Of a stretch of 55,237 nucleotides of DNA, positions 11,545-55,237 are shown piece by piece (the first letter of the stretch is position 1; every line of letters starts with the position of its first letter). This stretch comes from Patescibacteria group bacterium (GTDB taxonomy: Bacteria; Patescibacteriota; Patescibacteriia; UBA10025; JAHIVO01), in the NCBI GenBank assembly GCA_022560375.1, contig JADFTK010000002.1, positions 1 to 55,237 of the forward strand, read 5' to 3'. The notes under the pieces were generated by a model, which worked only from the letters and a program-made list of their open reading frames with translations, did no database searches and was not told where the DNA came from. Made by a program: the position numbers and the translations under genes.

Positions 11545-11548
11545 TAGC

Positions 11549-11576: not shown

Positions 11577-11607
11577 TTTATTGTCAGTAATATATTAAAA
11601 TATAATA

Positions 11608-14515: not shown

Positions 14516-14551
14516 CTTGTTGCAAATCATTACTATTAATATTAAGATAAT
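14511..14551. promoter_or_regulatory. AT-rich inverted repeat, Fur-box-like, overlapping the -10 and the start codon
   Basis: ATTATCTT (14511-14518) pairs with AAGATAAT (14544-14551). They enclose AATCATTACTATTAAT. Confidence 0.3.
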
Positions 14552-15116: not shown

Positions 15117-15273
15117 TTTTCGTAGCCAAGATGTTGTTGAGCATGCCTTGTTATTAGACGATGAAGAAGGACAGCAACTGTGCCCGAAGTGCAATGGAGT
15201 CATGCCATCCCTGCAGGGCAGCACTTCTTCAATTTGTCTCCAGTGTGGCTACAAAGAAAGTTGTTGCTATTAG
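15082..15273 (+). CDS. Small zinc-ribbon ORF overlapping the fur 3' end
   Basis: LCPKCNG...ICLQCGY gives two CxxC pairs. Overlaps the fur reading frame by 35 nt in another frame. No obvious SD. Confidence 0.35.
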   Translation: MYQPQREISRRNFRSQDVVEHALLLDDEEGQQLCPKCNGVMPSLQGSTSSICLQCGYKESCCY

Positions 15274-15300
15274 CTATATCATTACCATAAAATTTATAAC

Positions 15301-16050: not shown

Positions 16051-16052
16051 TT

Positions 16053-17465
16053 ATGTCTGACGCTGCTAAATTAAAACAATATAGAAACGATGCTAAGCTA
16101 GCCAAGGAACGGCCGGATAATGTCAAATATCTTCATAACTCAGGCAAGGGCCTATCCGAGAGAGTGGTAAAAGAAATTTCCTACATGAAGAACGAGCCAG
16201 ACTGGATGCTTCAGATTAGATTAAGGGCGTACCAAACGTTTCTAAAAAAACCTACTCCCCGGTGGGGTGGTGATCTGTCAGGTATTGATTATAATGACCT
16301 GTATTACTACATGAAGCCCACTGATAAAGTGGCCAATGACTGGAAAGATGTGCCAAAAGAGATTCGTAATACCTATAATAAATTAGGAATTCCTCAAGCA
16401 GAACAAAAATATCTTACCGGTGTCATGGCCCAGTACGAATCTGAGGCAGTCTACCACAGTCTGGAAGAAAAAATGGAAAAAATCGGGGTGATATTTACTG
16501 ACATGGATACAGCCTTAAAAAAGTATCCTGATTTAGTGAAAAAATATTTTTCTACCGTGGTGCCAGCTGGGGATAATAAATTTTCTGCTTTAAATACTGC
16601 CGTTTGGAGCGGGGGAAGCTTTGTTTATATACCTGAAGGAGTAAGAGTTGATTTCCCATTGCAGGCTTATTTCCGCATTAATGCGGAAAAGGCCGGGCAG
16701 TTTGAGAGAACGCTTATCATTGCTGAGCCAGGTAGTTTTGTTCATTACGTTGAGGGGTGTACCGCTCCCCAATATGCCAGCGCATCACTGCATTGTGCTG
16801 TGGTGGAGATCCTAGTCAAGCCAAGCGCTAGAGTCCGATATACGACTGTGCAAAATTGGTCTAAGAATGTTTACAATCTCGTTACCAAGAGAACATTTGT
16901 CTACGAAGAAGGAACTATGGAGTGGGTTGATGGCAACTTAGGCAGTAAACTTACCATGAAATATCCATCAGTCTTCTTGCTTGGCCGAAAAGCCAAGGGA
17001 GATATATTGTCAGTGGCTTTTGCCGGTAAAGGGCAGCATCAGGACGCTGGAGGCAAAGCTATCCACGGTGCCCCAGAAACTTCCTCTACAATAATATCGA
17101 AGTCTGTTTCTCGTGATGGCGGTCGTACTACGTATCGAGGCATGGTCAAAGTACCTAAGGGAATTCATGACGTTAAATCTAATGTAGTGTGTGATGCTCT
17201 AATACTGGATGAGCACTCACGTTCCGATACTTATCCTATTATGGACATACGCGAGAGTAGAGTAAACATTGGCCACGAAGCCTCAGTCGGGAAAGTTGGC
17301 GAAGAGCAGCTTTTTTATCTTATGAGCCGTGGTTTATCTGAGTCAGAGGCCATGAGTATGATTGTCTCTGGATTTATTGAACCTATTGCTAAGGAATTAC
17401 CAGTGGAATATGCGGTAGAGCTAAATCGGCTAATTCAACTAAGTATGGAAGGAAGCGTAGGTTAA
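16053..17465 (+). CDS. sufB: Fe-S cluster assembly protein SufB
   Basis: 470 aa. [11 protein letters not shown]...GHEASVGKV...FYLMSRGL motifs. Confidence 0.9.
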
Positions 17466-18293
17466 ATGGCACAGCAGTTTCCGGTAGTAAAAATTGGTAC
17501 CACCAAAAGAGCTCTTTACCCAAAAGCCGATCCGCTGAGGCCTTTCCCGAAATCGATCGAGAACAGACTGGGTCATAAAGGCAAGAAGCAAAGAATAGTT
17601 TTTTCTTCCAATAAAACCTCGAGCCAGCATATCGACCTTATAAAAAATAAATTCACTGAAGTTTCGGTTCTGGTCAAGAAAAATGCCAAGGCGAATTTAG
17701 TTTTACTGGGCCAAGCGAATGCCAATTCTTATGCTTTGGGATTGATCAATATTACTATTGAAGCTGGGGCAATTTTTCATGTAGTGGAGGTGGTGAGCGG
17801 GGGAGCCAGGATAGAGACTCATATTGTCATGAATATTGTTGGCCGAGGGGCTATGGTCCAGTACTCTGGAATGTTTCATGGCCAAAAAAAAGCCCATCAG
17901 GCCCTTCATATTGTCCTGCGGCATCAAGCGCCAGACACTCAGGGGGATATATTCATCAAAGGAGTGTTTGAAGATGAATCCAAGGGAATCATCTCCGGTT
18001 TAATAAAGATTGATAAAGCAGCCCAGAAAACGAACTCATATTTTAAGGATGATGTACTATTATTTGACGGGGCCATGGCTGAATCAGTGCCCACGCTAGA
18101 AATAGAGGCGGATGACGTGAAAGCATCGCATGGCTCAACCACTGCCCGGGTTAATGAAGATCAGATTTTTTATCTTACCTCTCGCGGAGTAAATGGGCAG
18201 CAGGCCAGACGCATGATAATCAGCGGTTTTTTTGAGTCCTTTCTCAAAAAAGCCAGAGTCAAGTTACCTAAAAAGATTAAATATTTTGCATAA
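17466..18293 (+). CDS. sufD: SufD-like Fe-S assembly protein (short form)
   Basis: LEIEADDVKASHGSTTARVNEDQIFYLTSRG is the SufB/D C-terminal signature. Lies between sufB and sufS. Confidence 0.75.
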   Translation: MAQQFPVVKIGTTKRALYPKADPLRPFPKSIENRLGHKGKKQRIVFSSNKTSSQHIDLIKNKFTEVSVLVKKNAKANLVLLGQANANSYALGLINITIEAGAIFHVVEVVSGGARIETHIVMNIVGRGAMVQYSGMFHGQKKAHQALHIVLRHQAPDTQGDIFIKGVFEDESKGIISGLIKIDKAAQKTNSYFKDDVLLFDGAMAESVPTLEIEADDVKASHGSTTARVNEDQIFYLTSRGVNGQQARRMIISGFFESFLKKARVKLPKKIKYFA

Positions 18294-18294
18294 T

Positions 18295-19524
18295 ATGTTG
18301 GATGCCCATAAAATAAAAAAAGATTTTCCCATTTTTCGGCAAAAATTCAGTGGCCAGCCTCTAGTGTATTTGGATTCTACGGCTAGCAGCCAAAAGCCGC
18401 AGGCGGTTATTGATGCTGTCAGTGAGTGCTACGAGAAGTATTATGCCAACGTGCACCGCGGGATATACCAGCTCTCTGAACTGGCTTCCGATGCCTACGA
18501 AGCCTCACGTGCCACGGTGGCCAAATTTATTGGCGCCACCATACGTGAGATTATATTTACTAGAAATGCCACCGAGAGCCTTAATCTCATTGCCTTCACT
18601 TGGGGTAAGCAGAATATATCAGAAGGAGATGAAATTATTATTACGGAGATGGAGCACCATGCCAATATCGTCCCCTGGCAGCAATTAACCGCAGAGAAAA
18701 AGGCTAAGTTACATTATTGGCCTATTACCGATGAGGGCCGTCTGGACTTGGATAAGCTTGATGCATTATTAAATGGTAGAACCAAGCTAGTTTCTTTATC
18801 TCATATGTCCAATGTCTTGGGTACCATTAATCCCGTAAAAGATATAATTAAAAAAATACGGAAGTATAGGAGCGATATTGTTATCTCCATAGATGGTGCT
18901 CAAAGCTTGCCTCATATCCCGGTCAACGTGGTTGATATCGATGCGGATTTTTATTCATTTTCGTCACACAAAATGCTAGGACCGGCCGGCGTCGGAGTGC
19001 TTTATGGCAAGGCCGAGATACTGGAGTCGATGCCACCTTTTTTGACTGGTGGAGACATGATTACTAAAGTGACTTTCGAGGGAGCGGAATGGAATGATAT
19101 TCCTTTTAAATTTGAAGCAGGCACACCAAATATCGCTGGCGTTATTGGCTTGGCAGCTGCCATTAATTACCTAGAAGATCTAGGCATGGATAACGTATAT
19201 CAGCATGAGCAGGATTTAACGGCTAAAGTTTTTTCGGAGCTACTCAAGATTGATGGACTTAAATTATTCGGTCCCAAGGATATTAAAGATAGAGGTGCTA
19301 TATTTTCTTTCACCCTGGGCGACATCCATCCTCATGATTTAGCTTCTATACTAGATGAGCAAGGCGTCGCCATCAGAGCGGGCCACCATTGCGCTCAGCC
19401 ACTTCATCAGCGTTTTGGCATAGAGGCCACTGGCCGTGCCAGTTTTTATATTTATAATACTGACGAAGACATAAAATCATTAATAGAGGGCTTAAAAAAG
19501 GCTCAGGAGTTATTCAGCCTATGA
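18295..19524 (+). CDS. sufS: Cysteine desulfurase SufS (class V aminotransferase)
   Basis: FSSHKMLGP (PLP lysine) and IRAGHHCAQP (active-site Cys). Start taken at ATG 18295, one nt after the sufD stop. Confidence 0.9.
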   Translation: MLDAHKIKKDFPIFRQKFSGQPLVYLDSTASSQKPQAVIDAVSECYEKYYANVHRGIYQLSELASDAYEASRATVAKFIGATIREIIFTRNATESLNLIAFTWGKQNISEGDEIIITEMEHHANIVPWQQLTAEKKAKLHYWPITDEGRLDLDKLDALLNGRTKLVSLSHMSNVLGTINPVKDIIKKIRKYRSDIVISIDGAQSLPHIPVNVVDIDADFYSFSSHKMLGPAGVGVLYGKAEILESMPPFLTGGDMITKVTFEGAEWNDIPFKFEAGTPNIAGVIGLAAAINYLEDLGMDNVYQHEQDLTAKVFSELLKIDGLKLFGPKDIKDRGAIFSFTLGDIHPHDLASILDEQGVAIRAGHHCAQPLHQRFGIEATGRASFYIYNTDEDIKSLIEGLKKAQELFSL

Positions 19525-19901
19525 GTTTTGATATGTATCGGGAGATCATTATGGATCATTATAAAAATCCGAGAAATTTTGGTGCCATCAAAAATGCTGA
19601 TGGCCAGGCTACCAAGGACAATCCCTTATGTGGGGACAGTATCCAAATAACCTACTCCGTGGGTAAAGAAAAGTTAAGTGATATCAAGTTTAATGGCACG
19701 GGCTGTAGTATTTCTTTAGCGGGCGCTTCGGTACTAACTGAAAATATAAAAGGTAAAAAATTTGATGAGGTAAAAAATTATACCGATGAAGATTTTATGA
19801 AGGATTTAACCGTGCCCATCTCGCCAGCTCGTAGGAAATGTGCCTTGTTGGGATTGCGTGCCCTGCGCCAAGCGATGGACATTGAACAACACGAGAATTA
19901 A
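19521..19901 (+). CDS. sufU: SufU/IscU-type Fe-S scaffold (sulfur acceptor)
   Basis: NPLCGDSI, GTGCSIS and RRKCALL give three conserved Cys. 4-nt overlap with sufS. Confidence 0.8.
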   Translation: MSFDMYREIIMDHYKNPRNFGAIKNADGQATKDNPLCGDSIQITYSVGKEKLSDIKFNGTGCSISLAGASVLTENIKGKKFDEVKNYTDEDFMKDLTVPISPARRKCALLGLRALRQAMDIEQHEN

Positions 19902-19942
19902 TGTTTTAATAAATAAGGACGCTAATAATTAATATAAATACT

Positions 19943-20557
19943 ATGCCAAATAAATTTGAAACACCAAAACTGCTATATGCCTACGACGCACTTGAGCCTT
20001 ATATAGATAAGGAAACAATGACTATTCATCATGATAAGCATCATGTGGCTTATACCACCAAGCTCAACGCCGCAATCGATAAGCACCCTGATCTGTTTGA
20101 GAAAACCGCCGAAGAGTTATTGCGTAATCTGGGAGCCATTCCAGAAGATATTCGAATGATAGTTCGTAATAATGGCGGTGGCCATGTCAATCATGCCTTA
20201 TTCTGGGAAATTATGGGACCCGAGGCTGGTGGAGAGCCAGAGGGAGATTTAGCAGCAGCTATCGAGAGTGACCTGGGTAGCTTCGACGCATTTAAAGAGG
20301 CTTTCACAGAAGCGGCTACCACTCAGTTTGGATCAGGTTGGGCTTGGCTCGTTTTTGATAACGGAAAATTAGTAGTAGAAAAAACAGCTAATCAAGATAC
20401 ACCTTTGTCAGATGGTAAAATACCTATCCTGGGACTTGATGTTTGGGAGCACGCCTATTATTTGAAGTACAAAAATGTCCGCCCCGATTATATAAAAGCT
20501 TTTTGGAACGTTGTGAATTGGTCAGCTGTCTCGGAAAAGTTTGATGCCGCTTCATAA
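19943..20557 (+). CDS. sodA: Fe/Mn superoxide dismutase
   Basis: HHDKHH and DVWEHAYYL motifs. Metal specificity cannot be decided from sequence. Confidence 0.9.
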
Positions 20558-20596
20558 GTCATTGAATAAAATATATATTTAATCAAAAAAATAGCT

Positions 20597-21103
20597 ATGA
20601 TTAGCCAAAAAATCGTTGAGGCCATAAATGGCCAAATTAAAGAAGAGTTCTACTCCGCATATTTATATTTAGCTCTGGCAGCGCATTATGAGGCGGCCCA
20701 CCTCAAAGGTTTTTACCAATGGTTGATGGCACAATATGAGGAAGAGATGCAGCACGCTATTAAGTTCTACAATTATTTACTGGAGCGTGACGGTAAAATT
20801 GAACTACTACAGATCGACAAGCCCCCTACAGATTTTCCGCCACCTCATGAGGCCTTTAAATTAGCCTATGCCCATGAGAAGAAGATCACCGGATTAATTA
20901 ATGATCTTTATCATCTGGCTCAAACTGAAAAAGATCCAGCTTTTGAACAATTTTTACGTTGGTTTATTGAAGAACAGGTAGAGGAAGAAGAAGGTACTTT
21001 AGCCATTGTGGGGAAATTGGAGAAAATAGGCAAAGATCCTACTGGACTTTTCATGCTTGATGGTCAACTAGGACAGCAAAAGGAAGCGGGTAAAAGCGAG
21101 TAG
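20597..21103 (+). CDS. ftn: Non-heme ferritin
   Basis: Ferritin-like four-helix pattern EEFYSAYLYL...EEMQHA...AHEKKIT...FIEEQVEEE. Confidence 0.85.
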   Translation: MISQKIVEAINGQIKEEFYSAYLYLALAAHYEAAHLKGFYQWLMAQYEEEMQHAIKFYNYLLERDGKIELLQIDKPPTDFPPPHEAFKLAYAHEKKITGLINDLYHLAQTEKDPAFEQFLRWFIEEQVEEEEGTLAIVGKLEKIGKDPTGLFMLDGQLGQQKEAGKSE

Positions 21104-24677: not shown

Positions 24678-24754
24678 TGGTACCAGGGGTGGGATTTGAA
24701 CCCACGACCTCGGGCTTATGAGTCCCACGCTCTAACCAACTGAGCTACCCTGGC
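24678..24754 (-). tRNA. tRNA-Met or tRNA-Ile2 (anticodon CAT), CCA encoded
   Basis: Hand-folded cloverleaf: GCCAGGG acceptor, GCTC/GAGC D stem, CTCATAA anticodon loop, GTGGG-TTCAAAT-CCCAC T arm. Confidence 0.85.
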
Positions 24755-24878
24755 TCGTTTTATGAAAACCCCTTTTTAGAAAAGTGGTTTTCATCGCTTT
24801 CCACAAAAATTAATTGTTTCGCTAGGCTCGGGGCCCGCAAGACCCGTAGCCTTGCGAATCTTTTCATAATAATTATTT

Positions 24879-24953
24879 TGGTTGCGGGGGAGGGACTTGC
24901 ACCCTCGATCTCCGGATTATGAGCCCGGCGAGATACTACTTCTCCACCCCGCG
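24879..24953 (-). tRNA. Initiator tRNA-fMet (CAT), CCA encoded
   Basis: CGCGGGG...CCCCGCA-A-CCA gives a C1xA72 mismatch. CTCATAA anticodon loop. Confidence 0.85.
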
Positions 24954-25001
24954 CTGGATGTATACTGGATTATAAATTATTTCTTCACTTTTGACAAGCC
25001 G

Positions 25002-25088
25002 TGGTGCCGGGAGAGAGACTCGAACTCTCATGATGTTGCCATCGCAGGATTTTGAGTCCTGCGCGTCTACCAGTTCCGCCATCCCGGC
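25002..25088 (-). tRNA. tRNA-Leu (CAA), type II with long variable arm, CCA encoded
   Basis: GCCGGGA acceptor, CAGGA-CTCAAAA-TCCTG anticodon arm, long variable arm, GAGAG-TTCGAGT-CTCTC T arm. Confidence 0.85.
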
Positions 25089-25165
25089 GCGCATAGGATG
25101 ATTCTATGGAAAAAAACTGTTTTTGTCAATGCTTTTTTGCTATAATAAAGGCAACTAATGAGCTT

Positions 25166-25933
25166 ATGTCAAAGGTTATTTCAATCGTCAACCAAAAAGG
25201 GGGAGTCGGTAAGACAACTACCGCAGTTAACCTGGCCACGTATTTGGCACGTTTAGGGAACTCCGTGCTATTAATTGACCTTGATCCCCAGGGTAATGCT
25301 TCGTCAGGCATCGGTGTTAATTATCGGCAGGTAAACAAAGGGATATATCATCCCCTGATTTCGGACGTACCCTTGAAAGAAGTAGTCGTGCCAACTCAGG
25401 TGGATGGACTTAGTTTGGCACCGGCCAGCATTGATTTGGCTGGCGCAAGGGTAGAATTGGTAGATATGGAGACCCGCGAATTTCAATTACACAACGCTAT
25501 TCTCGAGATTCGCCATGGTTATGATTATATTATCATCGATTGTCCACCCTCCCTTTGCTTATTAACTTTGAATGGCCTAGTGGCTTCAGATGACGTCCTC
25601 ATCCCGGTACAAACGGAATACTATGCCCTGGAAGGCCTCGGTCAATTATTAGAGACCATTGAGCTGGTCAGAAATAATTTGAAACCGGAACTAAATATTT
25701 TAGGTGCCGTCATGACCATGTATGATGAAAGAAATCAATTGTCCAATGAGGTATTTAAGGAGCTGTACCGCTATTTTCCCAATAAAATATTTAGAACGGT
25801 AGTACCCAGAAACGTAAAATTAGCTGAAGCCCCCAGTTTTGGAAAAAGTATATATGACTATGCAAAAAAATCTCCTGGTGCCAAGGCATACGAAAGGCTA
25901 GCTAAAGAGATAATTGCCCACAACGCTAGTTAA
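25166..25933 (+). CDS. parA: Chromosome partitioning ATPase ParA/Soj
   Basis: VNQKGGVGKTTT deviant Walker A. Start taken at the internal Met (MSKVISIV). TGnTATAAT extended -10 at 25137-25146. Confidence 0.9.
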   Translation: MSKVISIVNQKGGVGKTTTAVNLATYLARLGNSVLLIDLDPQGNASSGIGVNYRQVNKGIYHPLISDVPLKEVVVPTQVDGLSLAPASIDLAGARVELVDMETREFQLHNAILEIRHGYDYIIIDCPPSLCLLTLNGLVASDDVLIPVQTEYYALEGLGQLLETIELVRNNLKPELNILGAVMTMYDERNQLSNEVFKELYRYFPNKIFRTVVPRNVKLAEAPSFGKSIYDYAKKSPGAKAYERLAKEIIAHNAS

Positions 25934-25956
25934 TTATTAGCTGATAAAAAATATTC

Positions 25957-26805
25957 ATGTCAAAAAAAACGTTAGGTAGAGGACTGAGCTCATTAATACC
26001 ATCGAAAGTTGTATCGTCTACAGACATATCAAGTGATGAAAAAGTATTGCAGCTAGCCGTCGACCGTATCCAACCAAATCCATATCAGCCTCGCCAGAAT
26101 TTTAATAGGGAGGCCTTGGAAGATCTGACTAATTCCATTAAGGTGCATGGCATAATCCAGCCTTTAGTAGTATTAGAAACTGAAGGAGGCTATCAGCTGA
26201 TAGCCGGTGAGAGACGATTGCGGGCAGCTAAACTTTTGGGTAAAAGCAAAGTACCGGCCATCGTCCGTAAGGCGTCTGATCAGGAGAAGCTGGAATTGGC
26301 ACTGGTCGAAAATGTCCAGCGCGAGAATTTGAATCCTATCGAAAGAGCCCATGGGTATCAACAGTTAATTGACGAGTACAGTCTGACACAGGAAGAAGTG
26401 GCCAAAAAAGTTGGTCAGAGCCGGGCAGCGGTCAGCAACACCATAAGGCTGCTAACGCTGGCAGAGGAAATTCAAAAAGCTGTGGTGGATAGCAAGATTA
26501 CAGAAGGGCACGCTAAGGTTTTACTTAGTGTTACCTCAGAAAAAGAGCGCCACAAATTATTTTCTGATATTCTGCATAATAAATTAAGTGTGCGTATTAC
26601 TGCCAGTCGTGTTCCAGGTTTTTCGTCATCCCAACCGAACAAGTATGCTACTAAAGACCCTAATTTGATTGAGAAGGAAGATATAATAAAGGAAGCATTA
26701 GGGACTAAAGTTGAAATTAATAAAAAGGGGCCAAAAGGTACTATTGTCATTCATTATTATTCGGGAGAAGAATTGCAGTCAATAATTAGAAAGATTTCTG
26801 GTTAA
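25957..26805 (+). CDS. parB: Chromosome partitioning protein ParB/Spo0J
   Basis: LIAGERRLRAA and ENVQRENLNPIE motifs, plus an HTH. Confidence 0.9.
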   Translation: MSKKTLGRGLSSLIPSKVVSSTDISSDEKVLQLAVDRIQPNPYQPRQNFNREALEDLTNSIKVHGIIQPLVVLETEGGYQLIAGERRLRAAKLLGKSKVPAIVRKASDQEKLELALVENVQRENLNPIERAHGYQQLIDEYSLTQEEVAKKVGQSRAAVSNTIRLLTLAEEIQKAVVDSKITEGHAKVLLSVTSEKERHKLFSDILHNKLSVRITASRVPGFSSSQPNKYATKDPNLIEKEDIIKEALGTKVEINKKGPKGTIVIHYYSGEELQSIIRKISG

Positions 26806-46479: not shown

Positions 46480-47931
46480 TTAATCAGTATGCCTGGATAT
46501 TTGAGCCGTCGATATTTGGTCTTGGCCGATGATAATGAGTATATCGACATTGGTGGCACTAGTAGTACGGGGACTATTCGAATTAGTCATACCCACCGAT
46601 TTAGCTGGAGCGATATTGGCATCAAGAATATTTTTTAGGCTTACTAAGGTATATGGCTTGGTACCGCCCGATAAGTCATATATAGTGGTAGTGGTAATAG
46701 CCTCCTCCGTATCCGCGTTACTGATCTGTATGACATTGTATTGCAGCCCTTTTAGCTTATTCGCTGTTTTGGTGGCCAGTCCGATAACGTTAGTGCCATT
46801 CTGTACTTCGATTTTAGCTTTTTCACGGGCAATGAAGCTAGTATTAAACACATTTTTCATGCGGTATTGAATGGCACTATAGTCACCTGAATTAGGCAGG
46901 AGTATGTAGGCCCCATCGATTGTAGTATCAGAGTAGAGCAACCCCTCGTCACTAGTATCTAGGGACAAGGAAATTATTTTATCTTTGTTAATATTATCAG
47001 CAATTTTTGCTAGTTTGACTATTTCCCATATCTGCATATTTGTCTTATTGTGCTTGCCTAGGTTATCTAAGGCAGATACAATACCGGCCGGATTCAGGAA
47101 GGTATTTAAAGAAAGGAATTTTTCTTTGAAGGCAAAAAGAACTTTTTGTTGGCGTTGGGATCGTGCAAAGTCAGAGCCCTCACCATTAGTGCCGTGCCTG
47201 GAGCGGGAGTATTGCAGGGCACGCTCTCCATCCATATGATTAATCCCTTCTTTAAATGAAACTACTTGAAACCCGAAGTTATAATCAGGGTACTGGTAGT
47301 CGGTGAAGGCATTATCTACATCTATATCAAGTCCATTTAAATCGTCAATTACTTTTTTGAATCCTTCAAAATCAATGCGAGCATAATAGTGTATAGGTTC
47401 ACCGGTAACTTCGGTAACGACCTCGGCTAGCAGTGCTTCTCCGCCACCAGGGTAGTCGTCATTCATGCCAAAGGCAATAGAATTATTTATTTTTCTCCAG
47501 CCAAAAGTTGGTATGTCTACGTATAAATCACGAGGGATAGACATGGTGGCCACCTCATTGGTTGAGGGTTTGATACTGACTACCATAATAGTATCGGCTA
47601 AATATGAGCCAGGATGTCCCGCCCCGCCAATGCCGACTAATAATATATTAATCCGGTCATTACTTTCGCCAGCTAATTTTTTATCCGGATTAGAGATTAA
47701 ATGCTTAATTTGCTCAATAAAACTAACCTTAGCACCTGATTCCGAATTAGTGCTGTTGACTGCCAGAATTACCTTGGTAAAAAATCCCAGCCCAATCATT
47801 ACCACAACTAAAAGAAGCACCAGTGATGACCACATTAGCCGACGGGATTTCTTGGCGGGTGCGGCCACTTGATAAATGTTACTGGCCTTCTGGAGAATTT
47901 TTTGGTTCTCTTGGTTGAGTAAATTAGGCAT
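46480..47931 (-). CDS. LytR-CpsA-Psr (LCP) family protein with C-terminal LytR_C domain
   Basis: N-terminal TM. NILLVGIGG...ADTIMVVSI...SIPRDLYV. C-terminal KIEVQNGTNVIGLA. Confidence 0.8.
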   Translation of the reverse strand: MPNLLNQENQKILQKASNIYQVAAPAKKSRRLMWSSLVLLLVVVMIGLGFFTKVILAVNSTNSESGAKVSFIEQIKHLISNPDKKLAGESNDRINILLVGIGGAGHPGSYLADTIMVVSIKPSTNEVATMSIPRDLYVDIPTFGWRKINNSIAFGMNDDYPGGGEALLAEVVTEVTGEPIHYYARIDFEGFKKVIDDLNGLDIDVDNAFTDYQYPDYNFGFQVVSFKEGINHMDGERALQYSRSRHGTNGEGSDFARSQRQQKVLFAFKEKFLSLNTFLNPAGIVSALDNLGKHNKTNMQIWEIVKLAKIADNINKDKIISLSLDTSDEGLLYSDTTIDGAYILLPNSGDYSAIQYRMKNVFNTSFIAREKAKIEVQNGTNVIGLATKTANKLKGLQYNVIQISNADTEEAITTTTIYDLSGGTKPYTLVSLKNILDANIAPAKSVGMTNSNSPRTTSATNVDILIIIGQDQISTAQISRHTD

Positions 47932-48021
47932 AAAGTAGTGTCATTATAGTAAAATAGGCACGTCTAGTCAAAAGTATTTGATGTACATTGGATTTTGCTC
48001 ATGTTACAATTTGGATGCTTT

Positions 48022-48726
48022 ATGAATTCAGTAATAATCCTCCCCACCTATAATGAAAAAGAAAATATAGCTGGCATAGTACAGGAGATTTTTTCTATTG
48101 GAATTAGTGATCTGAAGGTAATAATTGTTGATGATAATTCTCCGGATGGCACTGGGCAAATAGCTGACAAATTAGCTGCCGAAAATTCCCGAATTAGTGT
48201 ACTGCACAGGCCCAAAAAAGAAGGATTGGGTAAGGCGTATATGGCTGGCTTCCAAGAAGCCTTAAGTGATCCACAAAATCAGTACATATTTGAAATGGAT
48301 GCGGATTTTTCTCATCAGCCAAAGTATTTACCAAGATTTTTAGATAGCATGGAGCAGGCCGATCTGACGCTCGGCTCTAGATATATAGTTGGTGGTGGCA
48401 TAGCCAACTGGAGTTGGCCACGCCGTTTCATTAGTTGGCTGGCTAATATTATTATCCGCAAGTTGCTAGGTGTGGCAGTGCGGGATTTGACGGGGGGATT
48501 TAAATGTTTTAACCGTCGGGTTTTAGAAAATATGGATTTAGAAAATATTGAGTCCCGGGGGTACAATTTTCAGATAGAGTTAACCTACAAAGCTATAAAA
48601 AAAGGTTTCCGAATTAAGGAAGTACCCATCGTATTTGTTGAGAGACGGGCGGGTCACTCGAAATTTAGCGCTGCTATTATGATAGAAAGTTTTTGGAAGG
48701 TACTAATGTTGCGATTTAAGAAATAA
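48022..48726 (+). CDS. GT2 polyprenol-phosphate mannosyltransferase (Dpm1-like)
   Basis: VIILPTYNEKENI, IIVDDNSPDGT, EMDADFSH. Start taken at the internal Met (MNSVII). Confidence 0.8.
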   Translation: MNSVIILPTYNEKENIAGIVQEIFSIGISDLKVIIVDDNSPDGTGQIADKLAAENSRISVLHRPKKEGLGKAYMAGFQEALSDPQNQYIFEMDADFSHQPKYLPRFLDSMEQADLTLGSRYIVGGGIANWSWPRRFISWLANIIIRKLLGVAVRDLTGGFKCFNRRVLENMDLENIESRGYNFQIELTYKAIKKGFRIKEVPIVFVERRAGHSKFSAAIMIESFWKVLMLRFKK

Positions 48727-48883
48727 ACGTAGATTACTGCGCCTAGCCAATAATAAGATTAATATTTACCCTTTTTTATTGTTAAGTGATACTGGTAAAA
48801 GCCTATAAATAAAGGGTAACAATCAATTTTGGTAATTTAGTTATAGTTATAACCCCGGTCATTAGTGATTGGATGTTTTTAAA

Positions 48884-48913
48884 TTGGACAAAACTCTCCA
48901 TATCTGCTATACT
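48884..48913 (+). promoter_or_regulatory. Candidate promoter of the giant ORF (TTGGAC-N18-TATACT with TGn)
   Basis: TTGGAC at 48884-48889, TGC then TATACT at 48905-48913. The leader hairpin TAAGTTAGG/CCTAACTTA lies at 48930-48958. Confidence 0.4.
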
Positions 48914-49032
48914 CAAAAAAGTTCATTGGTAAGTTAGGACGGAGCTAGGCCTAACTTAAGCGAAAAAATAATAAAATAACCGTGGGGCTGTTTTCGCTTT
49001 CTAAAAAACAAAAATCAGGAGCGTCAAGCAAG

Positions 49033-52000
49033 ATGAGCATTGTTGATTTTGATGCTCTGCCAAACCTCCTTACTATTGATCAGGTAAGTGGGATTCTTGG
49101 GGTACATCCAAACACTCTGCGCAATTGGGATCGCTCAGGAAAATTAAAAGCGACTCGTATAGGCTCTAGGCAGGATCGTCGCTATGACCGTGAGCTAGTA
49201 AAAAAATTCTATCATAAATCCGACACTCAGCCACATCCAGAACCGCCCAAAAAACCTGAAGAGCAGAACTACGTAATAAAATTTGATTTTACGCCACGCT
49301 CCATCAAGCTCTATGCTATGAGCCGGCGTTTTTCAATTTTTGTATTTTCTACTTTGATGGTGGCTTTTTCATTTGCCGTGCTTCAAGTTACCTTTTTTGC
49401 CTATATTTTCTTAGTACAAGCTGAAGTAAGCCCCATTGAATCTTTCCAAATCCAACCGGCTGAGCTATCAGGTTGGGAGGGTGCGGATTTTGCCTCTCAA
49501 ATAGATTTGCTGCCCACGTCTTCAATAGAGGATTTTAACCAAGACAACTCTGCGGTATACAGAAAAATCCCCGTTACTGATCTGTCAACCGAGGAAGAAG
49601 AAGTGGTTGTTGGTGAGTTACCGGGTGTCAGCAACCAGTTAGTAGCTAGCGGGTTCGCCCTGCCTGAGAGCATATCGCCGCAGTCCACTCTTATTGGTGC
49701 CCGAGTTGATATTTCTTTAGCCGCGGAGGGGTATGTGGATAGCGCTGATGTAATAGTTTTTTCCTATTCGTTAGATAATGGTACTACCTGGCAAACATTA
49801 GATTCTTTTGGCCTTATTGATCATATCAGCAATATTACTAATCAGGGATATTGGACCTATGCTTTAGATGAATTGAAAGATCCAGAGCAGTTAGATGTAT
49901 TTAAAGTACGTATTGAATATGCAGCCGAGCCGTCAGAGCAGGAAACGCGTGCCTTGCTTGATGGTATTGCCTTGGCCCTGGAGGTGCAGCCGCCAGATCC
50001 GGTAATTGAGGAAATAAATGACAGCGTGGATTTTATAGTTAAAGAAACCGATTTGACTATAGAAGATGAGCCGGTCATTGAGGTTGAGGTAAAGGAGGAA
50101 TCCTTCTTTGACTTTATCGGGGTGGAGCCTACGAAACGTGAAATTAAATCAATTAAAATTATCAACCCCAGCGGGGAAGTACGCGAAGCAGATGTAGACG
50201 TGTCTGAGCAGGTAGCAGGTGATATTACCACCGCTGAATTGGTGGTGCAGAGGAAAAATTTTACCCAGCCGGGTAAATACAGCGTAATAATTGAGATAGA
50301 GCAAGAGGGACGCATAGAAGAAATTATTTATGATTTCACCTGGGGAGTATTAGCCCTAAATCCTGATCAATCCCTATATAAAACAGGCCAGCAAGCTACC
50401 TTTTCCATTGGCGCCTTAGATGATGTCGGTCAGATTGTTTGTGATGCTGACATTACCCTGACTATTACTGATCCGGATGGGAAAAAATCCATAAAATCTA
50501 CAGCTGACGGCAGTATTGAAGTGACTGACTTCTGCGGTCAGAAGCAGTTATATGAAAAACCTGATTATTTGGCCACTTATCTTGTAGCGATTCCAGGCAC
50601 CTATGATCTGCACATGGAAGCAATTGTATCAGGTAATTTACGTGTGCTAAGTGATAGTTTTGTCGCGGAATTAAGCCCAGCGTATACTTTGAAGCGTCTG
50701 GGACCAACCCGTGTCTTTCCGGTATTATATCAGCCGATGAATTTTGAGGTGACGGCTTACGTGGATTTTGATGGCAAGATTGTGGAATTATTCCCAGCGG
50801 ATTTCGAGGTGATACCGGAGTTTGGTGGAGTAGAGGTACCCTATGATACTGGCACGGAAATAATTAAATCCATAGAATGGGAAAAAACTATCGGAGCCGG
50901 TGATACTATTACAGTTGGCTATACATTTAAGTCCCCAGAGAAGAGCCCAGTGCTCTATGAACTGGGCCCAGCTAAAGTGGGCGACTGGGAAGAGCTAAGG
51001 AAATGGCAGCTGGCCATTGACCCGACATTTATGTTTATACTGGCTACCAGCGGATCGGCGGCTAGCGGCTGGACTACTAATACCACCTATGACGGTAAGT
51101 TTCTTCGTGGAGCAGCCACCCAAGGTGGCACTGGCGGCAGCGCTACCAATACCCATACTGTTACTAATCAAACAATGAGTAATGCATCGGCTCAACGTCC
51201 CACGGAACCATGTTCTAGATCTTGTTTTGGAGTGTCTTCGGTCGGCCACACGCATTCTTTGACTAACCCCACCGTCGGCAACGCTAACAATGACCCGGCC
51301 AATTATTCGTTTGTATTATGGAAACATAATACGGGTATACCAACTCAAGTAGAGAATAATACCTTTGGGTTTTTTGCCTCTGCTCCCAGTGGCAGCTGGA
51401 CGCATTTTTCAAACTCCGGCAGCAATGCCCAAAATCGGTTGGTTGAAATTAATAGCTCCCACGCCCAAAGCGGCAGTGATACGCATACGCATAACCTCAC
51501 TTGGCAATCATTAGGTACTGGTACAGGTGAAAATAATATACCGCAGGTTTTTGGTGGAGTAAAAACTCACACAAATGATACCCACATCCATACGGCACCA
51601 TCAGCTGGTAACTCTACCTCAGCTACTTCCGTGCCGGTTTATGTGAATACGCTTATATACAAAAGTACGGCTCAGCAGGATATACCCAACGGATTTATTG
51701 GACTTTTCGATGCTGATCCAGGAACCGACTGGGATGTAATATCTGACGCTAGTCCTTATCTGAATAATTTTATCCGCGGTTCTACCAGCGAGGGCACCAC
51801 AAGCGGGTCAAATACGCATAGCCAAAGTGATACCACTAGCGGTGCTTCCGGATCTTCCAGCTCAAATCAAACGTATTCTGATAATGCCGGAACTGGAAAT
51901 GCGAAATCGGGCCATACGCACACGCTGACCGCCACCCTAAGTTCGAACGTCAATCATGAGCCATCGTATGCCAATTTTGTATTAGCTAAATGTACTAAAG

Positions 52001-55000
52001 GTGGTGGCTGTGGTGCTGGCGCAGTAGATCTGACCGGCAAAGCATACACTGATGATACAGAAGGCACACCGATTACCACTGGCACCAGCGTTTGTGTAGC
52101 GGTTAATGGTACATCATCTGATTGTGATGCCACTGACTCAAGCGGCGTCTTTAATATTACTGGAGTGACCACTAGTTCTGGGGATCAGCTGACATTTTTT
52201 ATTGATGGCGGCTCGATACTGGGTAATGCAGTAACTGTCAGCGATGGTGGGGCCATAGTTACCGGAGACAATTTACGAATATATGAGAATACTGTTCTAG
52301 TCCGGCGAGAGACGGGCACATCTATAGAAATATTAGAGATGGATGCCTATGATAATGACCAAAATGCTACTGATATGCTATACGATGCGACTGATGCGGC
52401 TCCCGACACTTTAATTTTGGAATCAGGCATAGAATTGTTCGTCTACACTGGCCATACTTTTGATCCTAATGGCCGGGTAACATTGGCTGGGGTAGCGGAT
52501 TTTGATGTTAGGGGTACTGCCTATCTGGATACGGCCACTAGCACTGTATCAGATGAAATAAAATTACCGTCAGGCGGCTCATTAACCATATCAGCTTCCA
52601 CCAATGTACAAGGTGGTGGTGAGGCCATATTTATGACTGGCGGGACACTTACAATTAGTGGCGGCACCACTACGGTTACCGGTGGTCTGGAAATGGATAG
52701 TGGGACGGCCACGATTTCTACAACTTTTGACCTTACTGGCGATATTGATGTCAATGGCGGAACGCTGAATATTAATACTAGCGCTAATGTAGATTTTGAT
52801 GGGGTCTTTTGTACTCAAGTAGGGGGAACGGCTAATTTTAATGGCGGCACCACTGATGGTAATACAGCTGGCGCATCGCATTTCCGCTTTAATGGAGGGA
52901 CAATATTAGTGGCCGGCGGTACGCATAGAACCGGTACTAACTCAATTATTGAAATGGGACGAAACACTACTGCTAATTGTATGAATGATGGAACCAGGGG
53001 GACGACCACATTTAATATGACCGGCGGCACGATACAAACCCGGGGCTGGGCATTTTACAGTAATTATACTGTTAATTCAACCACGACAACAGGTGGTACG
53101 GCTACGCTTGGCTATTCAGGATCTGCACCGGATATTTATAACGTAAATACCGGTACCTGGACTTTTTATGATTTTGACATAGCGGCTGGTCGATCTCCCA
53201 ATCTCCACCCCTCGTCGACCCAGGCAATGCCTGTGAAAAATGATTTTACTATTAATACTGGAGGATCTCTGGAAATGAATAGTGAGGCCATGACCATCGG
53301 AGGTGATTGGTTTAATGCTGGGACATTGATAGCTGAAACCGGCACAGTTACTTTGACCGGCACTGGGGCAATTAATGGCACGGCTGATACCACCTTTAAT
53401 AATTTAATTATCGGAGATGGATCCGCCGGTACTATAACTGTCAACGGCACCGATGATCCAATCATTGCCGGCACCCTGGATGTAGATACTGGTGATACTC
53501 TCTCATTATCAAGTGGCCGAACATTAACCAGTGACAGCACCCTGACTATAGATGGTACTATTTCTGGGGCTGGCACTCTAATTATTACTGATACCTCTAG
53601 TGGCCCGGCGGCTACTGGCACCCTTAGCTCTCTGGTACGATTTGATTCATCGGGGGGTAATATTCTCAACACGACTTTTGATGCCAGGACATATGCCGGT
53701 AACGTCGAGTTGTATGGAAATAACTCCTCTAATACTATCACCCCTGCTTCTGGCACTATTAATTTTTCGGGTAACCTAACTCTGACCCAAGATGGAACAG
53801 GGGCCACCACGTCTAATTTCAATATAAATGATCCCACGGTAACAGTTACTGGCAATGTAAGCATTGATACTAGTACCACATTTTCTTCATCAAGTGCCCA
53901 AACTCTTGATCTGAATGGGGATTATACTAATAATGGTACTTTTACTGATAACTCTGGCACGGTTTTATTGTCAGGTACAGGTCAGCAAACATTATCAGGA
54001 ACCATGGTCTCAGGTGGTAATGATTTTAATAATTTAATAGTTACTAATACCTTCGGGAGTGTTACAGGTTGTGCGACTTTAACTACCAAGGGTATAGATT
54101 TTGCTGCCTCAGCAGATGTCTCAGGAACATTTACTGTAAATGACAATGCTCATATAGAATATAATTCTGGGTCAACCTATGCTTTTACTAACATTGATTG
54201 GACTGGTTCAGCTAGTAACGACATTATTTTTAGAAGTTCTACTACTTCTGTCTGGGATCTAAATGTCACCAACACCAGCGTCGTATCTTATGTTGATGTA
54301 GCTTATTCTGATGCCACACCTGGTGTAGATATTGATGCAGATGATGGGACAAATACTGATTGTAATAATAATACTGCCTGGACATTCCCAGCTGGTGGGA
54401 TAAATGTAGCTGGTAGTTCAAATTCATCAGGTTCTGTTAAGATAGCGGTTAATGGAACATTGCAATCCGGAAGTTATACAATTAGTGGTAGTGCCTGGAA
54501 CATTACCACCGATTCAGCGTTATCAGGTGGTGAGACTATTACGGCCTTTATTAACGGAGCGACGACTGCTAATGAATCTACGGCTGTAACTGAGTATGAC
54601 GGGACGGACGGGATTACCGGCATGGTGCTTGATCAAAATGCGTTGTCTGTTGGCAGTGCTGATACAGGGGTGACTCTAACGGTGACCCAGCTGGGCCAAT
54701 ATGACAATGATCAAGATGAAGATATCATGCACTCGGCCAATGCCAGCACTCTGACGGTGGATGACGATAATGTTTATGCCACCGATACTATTGAGATGCT
54801 GTCTGGAGACACCCTGACTATCGGCGGTGCGGAGACGCTGGTGGCCTATACAGTAAAAATATCCGGGACGTTGGCCTCAGGGGGCGGTAGTGCCTATACG
54901 GTCAATGGCGACTGGACTAATAATGGTACCTTTACGGCCAGCACCAGCACTGTGCAGATGATCGGCACTGCCTCAATCAACGGTTCGTCTGGTACCACCT

Positions 55001-55237
55001 TTAATAATTTAACTATCGGAGATGGATCCGCCGGCACTATAACTGTCAACGGCACTGACGATCCAACAGTATCAGGAACGCTGGACGTTGACACCGGGGA
55101 CACCTTATCCATTGGCTCTGGTCGGCTTTTTATATGGACTGGCTCGTCCTTTACTTTAGACGGGACAATATCTGGTGCGGGCAGGCTGATAATTGATTCT
55201 AGTACTACCATCCCGACTACCGGCACCCTCTCGTCTG
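49033..55237 (+). CDS. Giant surface protein, 5' partial view (at least 2068 codons, no stop before window end): HTH - TM - Ig/MG-like region - HxH tail-collar-like modules - beta-helix-like repeats
   Basis: I translated this frame by hand across the whole span and found no stop. AGGAG sits 11 nt before ATG 49033. All track ORFs in 49497-55226 are minus-strand shadows. Confidence 0.85.
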   Translation, partial: MSIVDFDALPNLLTIDQVSGILGVHPNTLRNWDRSGKLKATRIGSRQDRRYDRELVKKFYHKSDTQPHPEPPKKPEEQNYVIKFDFTPRSIKLYAMSRRFSIFVFSTLMVAFSFAVLQVTFFAYIFLVQAEVSPIESFQIQPAELSGWEGADFASQIDLLPTSSIEDFNQDNSAVYRKIPVTDLSTEEEEVVVGELPGVSNQLVASGFALPESISPQSTLIGARVDISLAAEGYVDSADVIVFSYSLDNGTTWQTLDSFGLIDHISNITNQGYWTYALDELKDPEQLDVFKVRIEYAAEPSEQETRALLDGIALALEVQPPDPVIEEINDSVDFIVKETDLTIEDEPVIEVEVKEESFFDFIGVEPTKREIKSIKIINPSGEVREADVDVSEQVAGDITTAELVVQRKNFTQPGKYSVIIEIEQEGRIEEIIYDFTWGVLALNPDQSLYKTGQQATFSIGALDDVGQIVCDADITLTITDPDGKKSIKSTADGSIEVTDFCGQKQLYEKPDYLATYLVAIPGTYDLHMEAIVSGNLRVLSDSFVAELSPAYTLKRLGPTRVFPVLYQPMNFEVTAYVDFDGKIVELFPADFEVIPEFGGVEVPYDTGTEIIKSIEWEKTIGAGDTITVGYTFKSPEKSPVLYELGPAKVGDWEELRKWQLAIDPTFMFILATSGSAASGWTTNTTYDGKFLRGAATQGGTGGSATNTHTVTNQTMSNASAQRPTEPCSRSCFGVSSVGHTHSLTNPTVGNANNDPANYSFVLWKHNTGIPTQVENNTFGFFASAPSGSWTHFSNSGSNAQNRLVEINSSHAQSGSDTHTHNLTWQSLGTGTGENNIPQVFGGVKTHTNDTHIHTAPSAGNSTSATSVPVYVNTLIYKSTAQQDIPNGFIGLFDADPGTDWDVISDASPYLNNFIRGSTSEGTTSGSNTHSQSDTTSGASGSSSSNQTYSDNAGTGNAKSGHTHTLTATLSSNVNHEPSYANFVLAKCTKGGGCGAGAVDLTGKAYTDDTEGTPITTGTSVCVAVNGTSSDCDATDSSGVFNITGVTTSSGDQLTFFIDGGSILGNAVTVSDGGAIVTGDNLRIYENTVLVRRETGTSIEILEMDAYDNDQNATDMLYDATDAAPDTLILESGIELFVYTGHTFDPNGRVTLAGVADFDVRGTAYLDTATSTVSDEIKLPSGGSLTISASTNVQGGGEAIFMTGGTLTISGGTTTVTGGLEMDSGTATISTTFDLTGDIDVNGGTLNINTSANVDFDGVFCTQVGGTANFNGGTTDGNTAGASHFRFNGGTILVAGGTHRTGTNSIIEMGRNTTANCMNDGTRGTTTFNMTGGTIQTRGWAFYSNYTVNSTTTTGGTATLGYSGSAPDIYNVNTGTWTFYDFDIAAGRSPNLHPSSTQAMPVKNDFTINTGGSLEMNSEAMTIGGDWFNAGTLIAETGTVTLTGTGAINGTADTTFNNLIIGDGSAGTITVNGTDDPIIAGTLDVDTGDTLSLSSGRTLTSDSTLTIDGTISGAGTLIITDTSSGPAATGTLSSLVRFDSSGGNILNTTFDARTYAGNVELYGNNSSNTITPASGTINFSGNLTLTQDGTGATTSNFNINDPTVTVTGNVSIDTSTTFSSSSAQTLDLNGDYTNNGTFTDNSGTVLLSGTGQQTLSGTMVSGGNDFNNLIVTNTFGSVTGCATLTTKGIDFAASADVSGTFTVNDNAHIEYNSGSTYAFTNIDWTGSASNDIIFRSSTTSVWDLNVTNTSVVSYVDVAYSDATPGVDIDADDGTNTDCNNNTAWTFPAGGINVAGSSNSSGSVKIAVNGTLQSGSYTISGSAWNITTDSALSGGETITAFINGATTANESTAVTEYDGTDGITGMVLDQNALSVGSADTGVTLTVTQLGQYDNDQDEDIMHSANASTLTVDDDNVYATDTIEMLSGDTLTIGGAETLVAYTVKISGTLASGGGSAYTVNGDWTNNGTFTASTSTVQMIGTASINGSSGTTFNNLTIGDGSAGTITVNGTDDPTVSGTLDVDTGDTLSIGSGRLFIWTGSSFTLDGTISGAGRLIIDSSTTIPTTGTLSS
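53389..53640 (+). repeat. Intragenic coding repeat copy 1 (TFNNLIIGDGSAGTITVNGTDDP...)
   Basis: Aligns with 54994-55237. 4 mismatches in the first 72 nt or so by hand alignment; beyond that it is homologous at protein level. Confidence 0.8.
54994..55237 (+). repeat. Intragenic coding repeat copy 2 (TFNNLTIGDGSAGTITVNGTDDP...)
   Basis: Offset of 1605 nt (535 codons) from copy 1. Truncated by the window end. Confidence 0.8.

Follow-up and report, generated by a model that had tools for sequence, protein, structure and literature searches.

A giant open reading frame (ORF) runs off the end of the 55,237-nucleotide window of Patescibacteria group bacterium DNA analysed here (GenBank assembly GCA_022560375.1, contig JADFTK010000002.1, positions 1 to 55,237 of the forward strand), and the protein that it encodes joins a winged helix-turn-helix (HTH) domain, a linker and a single hydrophobic segment to a long series of predicted exported domains (Table 1). 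Direct reading confirms the initial annotation of an uninterrupted frame 1 of 2,068 codons from ATG 49033 to the window edge, with AGGAG 11 nt before the ATG. The other two forward frames contain 133 and 229 stop codons over the same span, and the ORF was missing from the program-made list only because the listing omits ORFs that run off the source. On the best reading, these 6.2 kb are the 5' part of a gene, conserved in Patescibacteria, whose giant adhesin-like product is secreted to the surface; judging from orthologues, the complete protein probably has a length somewhere between about 3,900 and more than 6,600 amino acids.

Table 1. Coordinates in the window of the giant ORF, its parts and its upstream region (nt, nucleotides; aa, amino acids of the predicted protein).
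Feature	Position	Strand	Evidence
LytR-CpsA-Psr (LCP) cell-envelope phosphotransferase, upstream syntenic neighbour	46480..47931	-	Pfam; synteny
Glycosyltransferase family 2 (GT2) gene, upstream syntenic neighbour	47995..48726	+	Pfam; same place in L003, L005, L009, L010, L012, L013
Upstream box copy TTGTTAAGT, before the -35 element	48779..48787	+	Exact match
Degenerate box copy TTGGTAATTTAG	48829..48840	+	Direct repeat of 48926-48937, 92% identical, 97-nt spacing
Sigma-70-type promoter: TGGACA, 17-nt spacer, TG-extended TATACT	48885..48913	+	10/12 consensus match
Promoter-proximal leader element, box 1 TTGGTAAGT	48926..48962	+	Inverted arms TAAGTTAGG / CCTAACTTA at 48930-48938 / 48950-48958
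Shine-Dalgarno sequence AGGAG	49017..49021	+	Direct reading; 11-nt spacer to ATG
Giant ORF, 2,068 codons, cut by the window edge	49033..55237	+	Open frame
HTH_17/MerR-like (BldC/Xis-type) winged HTH, aa 12-59	49066..49209	+	Pfam, above cut-off
Pro/Lys/Glu-rich linker and n-region, aa 60-99	49210..49329	+	Homologue alignments
Single hydrophobic segment, aa 100-128, signal-anchor or signal-peptide h-region	49330..49416	+	Hydropathy; flanking charges
Predicted signal-peptidase-I site V128-Q-A130 / E131	49414..49425	+	Conserved in 35 HTH-bearing members
Conserved ectodomain core, aa 135-700, macroglobulin/immunoglobulin (MG/Ig)-like beta-sandwich array	49435..51132	+	Profile search; AlphaFold2; Foldseek
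HxH module region, aa 690-1130	51100..52422	+	Alignment with conserved His columns; AlphaFold2
G/T/S/N-rich acidic, beta-helix-like repeat region	52423..55237	+	Composition; repeated block

The HTH_17/MerR-type domain that had been recognised by eye in about the first 60 residues is matched by Pfam above threshold at residues 12-59. In a search of residues 1-100, HTH_17 (PF12728) scores 39.3 bits (cut-off 27) and MerR_1 (PF13411) scores 36.3 bits (cut-off 21.6), the latter match spanning only positions 2-45 of the 69 in the profile. The protein has the N-terminal winged HTH only, with neither a coiled-coil dimerisation helix nor an effector domain. By sequence it resembles the BldC and excisionase families without reaching the cut-offs of their NCBIfam models (BldC, NF033787, 24.7 bits versus 77; excisionase, TIGR01764, 28.4 bits versus 28.8), and a match to the NCBIfam HspR model is also below its cut-off. 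Sequence matches to solved structures are limited to the HTH, and comprise two entries: 4j2n, an excisionase from a mycobacteriophage, and 6amk, deposited as 'putative DNA-binding protein' and taken here to be Streptomyces BldC. An alignment of 35 HTH-bearing members of the family conserves LP.LL...VHPNTLR.WD..G.L.A.R.G.R.DRRY at 80% or more, and homologues share the n-region consensus KYV(L/I)KPGFS..K(I/L)KL..IS(R/K)(R/K)F. The HTH is continuous with the hydrophobic segment, as first reported: no stop is present between them in the window or in any of the 35 aligned homologues. An internal start at Met96, which would yield an ordinary secreted protein, was considered and rejected, since this residue is Ile or Leu in homologues, so that no internal start is conserved, and no Shine-Dalgarno sequence precedes it.

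The initial annotation had suggested looking for the same architecture in related genomes, and it is found there. Two partial homologues from a word-based search, named at NCBI only 'helix-turn-helix domain-containing protein', align in one frame with HTH, linker, hydrophobic segment and ectodomain (44-49% identity). A scan of the GTDB representatives (one genome per species) with the pattern HPNTLRNW located the fused gene in about 17 Patescibacteria species-level genomes, with complete products of 3,870, 4,118, 4,422 and 4,784 amino acids and others, cut by contig edges, of more than 5,900, 6,269 and 6,654 amino acids. The sole hydrophobic segment lies 100-145 residues from the start in all of the fused orthologues scanned. 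The gene order of the window, PilM-PilT-Pth-Der-LCP-GT2-giant gene, recurs at at least seven copies, and these are positional orthologues of the window gene because they have that neighbourhood in common with it.

An exhaustive profile search returned 4,100 representative clusters at E<=0.001 (1,370 of them at E<1e-30) that have the ectodomain core in common (profile positions ~230-750), many of them 2,000-7,700 amino acids long. Of the 150 best clusters, 25 have the HTH and, after it, a hydrophobic segment within residues 96-143; 81 have no HTH and start with a short N-terminal signal peptide or anchor that leads directly into the same CxGW...NSA ectodomain; and one (P0027) has a divergent, sub-threshold HTH_17. 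Judged by these sequences, the HTH is an accessory on a far larger family of secreted giants.

The segment at residues ~99-128 is the only hydrophobic one in the window protein (Kyte-Doolittle hydropathy above 1.6, against 1.16 for the runner-up window anywhere), with four Lys or Arg in the 15 residues before it, none after it, and a strongly acidic sequence downstream. Hydropathy and charge thus bear out the single strongly hydrophobic helix and the inside N-terminus that had been proposed; the pattern fits an N-in/C-out orientation, and the Pfam matches together with the positive-inside rule support an HTH that is genuine and faces the cytoplasm. Immediately after the segment comes the predicted signal-peptidase-I site, at which position -1 is Ala in 34 of the 35 HTH-bearing members, position -3 is Val (14), Ala (12), Ile (5), Thr (2) or Leu (2), and position +1 is Glu, Asp or Gly in 30 of 35. 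These residues fit the (-3,-1) rule of signal peptidase I recognition. Distant members have a hydrophobic stretch of ~20 unconserved residues after Arg/Lys, a textbook signal peptide of n-, h- and c-regions. From its sequence, then, what had been called a transmembrane (TM) helix looks like a signal peptide that carries an HTH as cargo on its cytoplasmic side, within an extension of ~95 residues.

Composition, homology and fold models support a large extracellular adhesin-like body downstream of this segment, much as it was first described. The MG/Ig-like stretch is seen by Pfam as a sub-threshold MG2 match (residues 445-489, E 0.0019, 19 bits versus a cut-off of 32.8) and is supported at the level of the fold: an AlphaFold2 model of residues 135-700 (20-sequence alignment, pLDDT 84) is a string of beta-sandwich domains, of which the best Foldseek matches (E about 1e-8) are the MG arrays of complement C3/C5 and bacterial alpha-2-macroglobulin, S-layer proteins (Bacillus anthracis Sap, Nitrosopumilus maritimus) and fibrillar adhesins (FdeC), all at the low global TM-scores expected of flexible multi-domain chains. 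Membership in the thioester family of alpha-2-macroglobulin and complement was rejected, as the thioester motif C[GLAS]EQ is absent from the window protein and from four complete orthologues, MG2 is below its cut-off, and the MG/Ig fold array is all that is shared. Four HxH motifs (residues 739, 818, 851 and 961) with conserved His columns agree with the HxH modules of the initial annotation. The AlphaFold2 model of this region (residues 690-1130, pLDDT 77) matches no PDB structure below 1e-3; in BFVD its best matches are Pas29 (E 3e-11) and Pas28 (E 3e-9), predicted structural proteins of the Actinoplanes phage phiAsp2, and there is a weak match to a 'tail collar fiber' (E 0.013).

As for the beta-helix-like C-terminal repeats that had been proposed, the G/T/S/N-rich acidic composition of these ~940 residues stands, and the fold is an assignment by composition. 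A block of ~80 residues is repeated at long range (residues 1454-1533 and 1989-2068); it came from a motif search, a self-BLAST of the protein having printed no internal repeats, and the ORF contains no tandem DNA repeats. Outside the HTH, the body has no sequence match at threshold in PDB, PHROGs, NCBIfam or Pfam, and the HTH is the sole Pfam match in the complete 3,870- and 4,784-amino-acid orthologues. No sensor domain is matched by Pfam over the 2,068 residues, and no sensor fold is recognised in the modelled residues 135-1130. The models are best read as describing adhesin-like or fibre-like cargo, not a sensor.

The same type of HTH also exists as a free protein. About 60 loci contain stand-alone HTH genes of 58-90 codons that have the recognition helix and wing in common with it (VHPNTLRNW(D/E)..G.…R.G.R.DRRY), and for 22 of these a large ORF beginning with a signal peptide starts within 3-140 nt downstream. 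The downstream products include proteins of 2,484, 2,520, 2,633, 3,158 and 3,161 amino acids, and several, truncated by contig ends, of more than 3,200 (up to more than 3,384); by BLAST, these giants have no homology to the window protein apart from one short repeat match. The remaining small HTH genes lie upstream of restriction-modification (RM) or other defence-type genes. Fusion of the HTH in one lineage and adjacency in others is the classical signature of a functional link, and the signal-peptidase site, the HTH-less paralogues and the free HTH genes beside unrelated giants together indicate that the HTH goes with the gene and not with a ligand of the ectodomain. A closer relationship of the giant-adjacent small HTHs than of the RM-associated ones to the fused HTH was set aside as marginal (median 88 versus 85 bits, p = 0.01, in a pattern-biased set). 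One further locus (L021, 9995-14893) encodes this HTH joined to a multi-TM GT2 protein of 1,632 amino acids that resembles processive glycosyltransferases, and so provides another fusion to a protein of envelope biogenesis.

Upstream of the giant ORF, the promoter is accompanied by copies of a box containing TAAGT. The layout TTGACA/TGGACA-N17-TGnTATAMT is found also in orthologues and in the split operons, and the leader element that follows it in the window (TTGGTAAGTTAGG-N11-CCTAACTTAAGCG, 48926-48962) is unique there, with 0.01 chance matches expected. The spacing from box 1 to box 2 is fixed at 25 nt in the fused orthologues, with no indels. Nearly all fused orthologues have TTGKTAAGT in the ~250 nt before the gene. 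Two copies on either side of the promoter are frequent, the second often lying 70-190 nt upstream of the leader copy. The operator AGTTATAGTTATAAC that had been proposed at 48839-48853 is not conserved in orthologues; the conserved boxes are those at 48779, 48829 and 48926-48958.

The box travels with the HTH. TTGKTAAGT is present within 400 nt upstream at 22 of 61 other HTH loci, versus about 1.4 expected, and in the 58 small-HTH loci that have a downstream ORF a large secreted protein is encoded next in 18 of the 20 with the motif versus 4 of the 38 without it (Fisher p = 2.5e-9). At three HTH-less paralogues of the window protein, there is neither TTGKTAAGT nor a nearby HTH gene. At the beginning of these leaders the pentamer TAAGT shows a 35-fold enrichment, with consecutive copies mostly 10 nt apart. 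The RM-associated small HTH genes are without TTGKTAAGT and have a palindrome, ACTTA-N2-4-TAAGT, at their own starts (8 of 34 loci), which in the whole 1.33 Mb data set has 17 strand-counted matches, representing at most ~9 distinct sites. The same recognition helix is thus found with the same half-site in two unrelated contexts, and this is the best available evidence that the HTH reads TAAGT. At small HTH genes of RM and defence loci, the compact element TTGTAAACTTAT(G/A)GTAAGT, which is built on an ACTTA-N-TAAGT palindrome, is situated 20-40 nt before the start (L027, L036, L043, L046, L049, L052, L061, L070 and L073); this RM-type element looks, by its sequence and position, like a controller-protein operator in the promoter of a possibly leaderless mRNA.

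Taken as a whole, these observations make it fairly likely that the HTH is a dedicated regulator of giant surface-protein genes, which acts on TAAGT boxes at its own promoter and has been merged with the signal peptide of its target, while the body of the protein is exported and is not a sensor. Other Patescibacteria have a free HTH gene directly upstream of a gene for a giant secreted protein, and in the lineage of the window the two frames would have merged. The HTH most likely binds the boxes that flank and follow its promoter. During export, signal peptidase I probably cuts just past the hydrophobic segment, at the conserved A-x-A site; a C-terminal module and partner proteins such as those of the orthologous loci would keep the giant body at the surface, and a stub of ~130 residues, consisting of the HTH and the membrane segment, would be left behind and may be degraded or released.

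Known proteolytic systems suggest what could follow. For RsiV, an anti-sigma factor with a single membrane pass, the site-1 protease is signal peptidase (PMC4183432), and site-2 proteases cleave both RsiV-type stubs and ordinary liberated signal peptides (PMC10202637). By analogy, proteolytic release of the HTH, already mentioned in the initial annotation, is reasonable in kind. We put forward only tentatively the specific proposal that each exported giant leaves one membrane-held HTH, which a site-2 protease would free to act on its own TAAGT boxes, so that transcription of the costly 12-20 kb gene would be tuned to secretion flux, or alternatively that the tethered nascent HTH would bind its own promoter in cis and pin the gene to the Sec translocon (transertion).

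Several points weigh against the regulator-plus-signal-peptide interpretation. Typical cleavable signal peptides have an h-region of about 7-15 residues, whereas that of the distant members is ~20 residues; in the window's clade it extends over 28-29 residues and shows strong conservation (FS.FVYS...VAF.F...Q..FFAY....QA/E), with conserved polar residues S101, S106 and Q118. So long and conserved a segment is more like a functional TM helix, could disfavour cleavage by signal peptidase, and is the main reason for which an uncleaved functional TM helix stays a live alternative. The small-HTH set was gathered with the HPNTLRNW pattern, and the sharing of the recognition helix is therefore partly by construction. 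The 5' arm of the leader element often has a complementary 3' arm at variable distance, which leaves a role at the RNA level open. No site-2 protease (Peptidase_M50) or signal peptidase gene is found among the window ORFs scanned, and the C-terminal module and downstream operon are attributed to the window gene from its orthologues, as the gene itself ends at the window edge.

The initial annotation had envisaged an uncleaved regulator of the ToxR/CadC kind, in which the giant ectodomain senses a host or surface and signals through the TM helix to the HTH. A DNA-binding domain (DBD) with a single TM segment and N-in topology is what such a regulator would have; single-pass transmembrane transcription regulators (TTRs) are common and include HTH_17 and MerR types, and the long, strongly conserved TM segment with polar residues in the window's clade is expected of a helix for signalling or oligomerisation. 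We nevertheless judge this alternative unlikely: a conserved signal-peptidase-I motif directly follows the segment, most paralogues with the same ectodomain are without the HTH, and the same HTH functions as a free protein next to unrelated giant genes. The body, moreover, resembles adhesins, S-layer proteins and fibres in its modules, and no sensor domain is recognised in the part modelled (residues 135-1130); transmission of a signal along more than 4,000 residues of beads on a string would have no known precedent.

The leader might instead act as RNA, a 5'-terminal hairpin that stabilises the 12-20 kb mRNA or controls its translation, in which case the co-occurrence of box and HTH would reflect common descent of the cassette and not binding. 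Box 1 lies just downstream of the -10 element and so is probably transcribed, and in most loci it could pair with a complementary stretch located farther downstream, at a distance that varies and in some cases with an inner hairpin inserted between the two. Further hairpins are present: one in the window at 48958-48999 (arms AAGCGAAAA / TTTTCGCTT, 24-nt loop), and small ones with CAAAATTA-type loops and differing stems (CTTGC/GCAAG, GAACCTGC/GCAGGTTC) in the split-operon leaders of L039, L044, L035, L047 and L080; these further hairpins are possibly a structured-RNA part of the leader. A conserved RNA hairpin was rejected as a candidate, however, when RNAalifold gave neither consensus pairs nor compensatory change in the fused or the split group, the mismatches between arms being uncompensated. 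No Rfam family matches the leader in the window or in 7 related loci, extra box copies lie upstream of the -35 element where they would not be transcribed, and the 10-nt periodicity of TAAGT and the RM-associated TAAGT palindrome fit recognition of DNA by a protein. An explanation at the RNA level therefore appears improbable, and the sequence patterns favour the conserved boxes as DNA sites.

It is more doubtful still that the HTH fold has a role away from DNA, as a protein adaptor like RodZ or as a handle in the cytoplasm by which so large a secretory substrate would be targeted or checked for quality. The proteins with HTH and TM segments that are counted as TTRs do include the RodZ type (HTH_25 with DUF4115), the HTH of RodZ binds MreB rather than DNA, and PilM and PilT genes are syntenic neighbours of the giant gene. 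Fused and free forms alike, however, conserve the recognition helix and the basic wing (HPNTLRNW...R.G.R.DRRY), the free forms of 58-80 residues are typical of DNA-binding Xis, BldC and controller proteins (some of them in RM operons), and the presence of the motif co-varies with that of the HTH. Finally, although split versions exist in other lineages and one single-cell genome (L017) has a frameshift within the gene, an assembly or frameshift error joining a small HTH gene to a downstream giant gene is hardly credible, as the in-frame fusion recurs with a conserved linker in independent assemblies (about 17 genomes and 25 clusters) at 26-49% identity.

The orthologous loci suggest how the giant body is probably held at the surface. 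Neither a TM segment nor an LPxTG motif is present at the C-terminus of complete orthologues. Their final ~150 residues share 64-71% identity with the end of a secreted protein (~340 amino acids) whose gene comes immediately downstream in the same genome. After this gene come those for two to three products that begin with a signal peptide, continue in a beta-rich body and end in a TM anchor; at three loci these products match WxLIP_PGBD (PF06030) weakly, over its full length but below the Pfam cut-off (E 0.0019-0.038). Genes for dockerin and cohesin proteins follow (L013 24413-27453; L009 23307-27470; L006 21744-26861). The HTH-less paralogues keep the same downstream genes (L081-L083). By its composition the operon looks like a surface-assembly system, and the shared C-terminal module together with the operon of the HTH-less paralogues is consistent with retention without the N-terminus, hence with N-terminal removal on export.

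Other variations occur within the family. In some HTH-less paralogues (P0022, P0045, P0046 and P0055) the signal peptide is preceded by a long N-terminal tail on the cytoplasmic side, with an extreme content of Arg and Lys, which may be another way to place a nucleic-acid-binding or membrane-binding segment there. The HTH-less paralogue P0025 (L082 1983-9500) contains Peptidase_M14 domains, combining an MG/Ig stalk with an enzyme. In L017, the frameshift (~11389-11578) divides the gene into 543 codons and more than 5,500 codons in another frame, and is probably a sequencing error, possibly the mark of a pseudogene. The fused gene is also present in metagenome-assembled genomes titled 'uncultured Gammaproteobacteria' (L005, L012, L015 and L018) and 'Zixiibacteriota' (L019); these titles probably reflect taxonomic mislabelling or mis-binning, L005 and L012 having synteny of the Patescibacteria type.

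The window is an ordinary segment of a Patescibacteria (candidate phyla radiation, CPR) chromosome, with ~41-45% GC. It includes genes for ParA/ParB, three tRNAs, a Suf/Fur/superoxide dismutase (SOD)/ferritin cluster, DsbA-like proteins, Lgt, Mfd, DprA and TopA, as well as PilM, a PilT-like ATPase, Pth, Der, the LCP protein and the GT2 glycosyltransferase, and Pfam scans of its ORFs gave no sign of an integrase or mobile element. The iron and oxidative-stress genes (Fur, SufBD, cysteine desulfurase, NifU, Fe/Mn-SOD and ferritin) and the tRNA/parAB genes occupy 14487-21103 and 24678-26805, the tRNA genes (Met, Met, Leu) being directly upstream of parA-parB, and a UPF0182 membrane protein of 911 amino acids is encoded at 2813-5548. 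Extension of the contig, which the initial annotation had proposed, recovered no 3' sequence: the window genome is outside the GTDB representative set, where the best identity is 46%, and an exact 51-mer from the window end has no match in the metagenome collection, for which reasons the gene could not be completed.

Patescibacteria are abundant, ultra-small and mostly uncultured episymbionts with very few recognisable transcription factors, and the control of host attachment in them is an open question. A triad of regulator, site and target, namely a BldC/Xis-like HTH, TAAGT boxes and a giant secreted adhesin-like protein, is found repeatedly in different lineages of Patescibacteria, either in operon form or fused into one polypeptide, and offers a testable handle on the regulation of the largest surface proteins of these bacteria. 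By a Rosetta-stone argument, it links small, ubiquitous 'helix-turn-helix domain-containing proteins' to surface-protein genes. The evidence from split and fused forms and from the signal-peptidase site corrects the simpler reading of the ectodomain as a sensor. If the HTH does leave the signal peptide, this would be a new coupling of transcription to protein export, and a transcription factor built into a signal peptide would be a logic not described for bacterial secreted proteins.

ToxR and CadC combine a winged-helix DBD of the OmpR type with a dedicated periplasmic sensor, and the window protein has no match to Trans_reg_C at E<=1. The initial annotation knew of no family with the architecture of the window protein, but proteins with a DBD and a TM segment are a recognised and widespread class, so that the bare architecture is not new: a survey of TTRs catalogued 50,302 of them, including 151 with HTH_17, 386 with MerR and 350 with MerR_1 (Demey et al. 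2023, PMC10269533). The window protein falls within the broad definition of this class (a DBD and at least one TM segment in one protein) and has N-in topology; it differs from TTRs such as ToxR, CadC and TcpP in that its exterior is a structural or adhesive protein of several thousand residues, a signal-peptidase site follows the TM segment, and most members of its family are without a DBD. The conserved signal-peptidase site makes it doubtful that a full-length form would last long enough to regulate transcription from the membrane. The word 'Patescibacteria' does not appear in the supplementary text of that survey (PMC10269533).

With the intramembrane proteolysis system of RsiV and sigma-V, the window protein shares an N-in single-pass topology, a regulatory domain in the cytoplasm and, close to the outer face of the membrane, a site of the signal-peptidase type, but its cytoplasmic domain is a DNA-binding HTH_17 and not an anti-sigma factor, and its exported part is the main product and not a receptor. 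The processing of pheromones by site-2 proteases (Eep/RseP) is, by analogy, a known route by which the HTH could be freed. The orthologous loci resemble WxL clusters in that the giant and the ~340-amino-acid protein share their C-termini and TM-anchored partners follow, and differ from them in having no WxL domain match, WxLIP matches below the cut-off, and cohesin and dockerin proteins in addition. As regards phage tail-collar and fibre proteins, the HxH region has the BFVD matches given above, and the window protein has no Pfam or PHROG match outside the HTH. Among the giant surface proteins of ultra-small or predatory bacteria, those encoded by the giant genes of Omnitrophota (West-Roberts et al. 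2023 preprint) are similarly several thousand residues long, largely dark to Pfam, secreted or at the surface, and implicated in attachment; they differ in that N-terminal C39 and S8 peptidase domains are reported near their signal peptides, and HTH or DNA-binding domains are not mentioned there.

No description of an HTH before a cleavable-type signal peptide of a giant secreted protein, of a split HTH-giant operon or of a TAAGT leader was found in the TTR survey, in work on giant genes or in searches of the CPR literature, and the proposed dedicated control cassette for giant genes is apparently undescribed. The HTH itself differs from BldC and Xis in being fused in front of a signal peptide, within a product that exceeds 2,000 residues, in scoring below the cut-offs of the NCBIfam models and in having no mobile-element context in the window. 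It belongs, as the N-terminal part only, to the same Pfam family (HTH_17/MerR_1), its free relatives are of 58-80 residues, and its candidate sites are direct repeats at 10-nt spacing. BldC of Streptomyces is likewise MerR-like, without dimerisation or effector domains, and forms cooperative multimers on direct repeats (PMC5859096).

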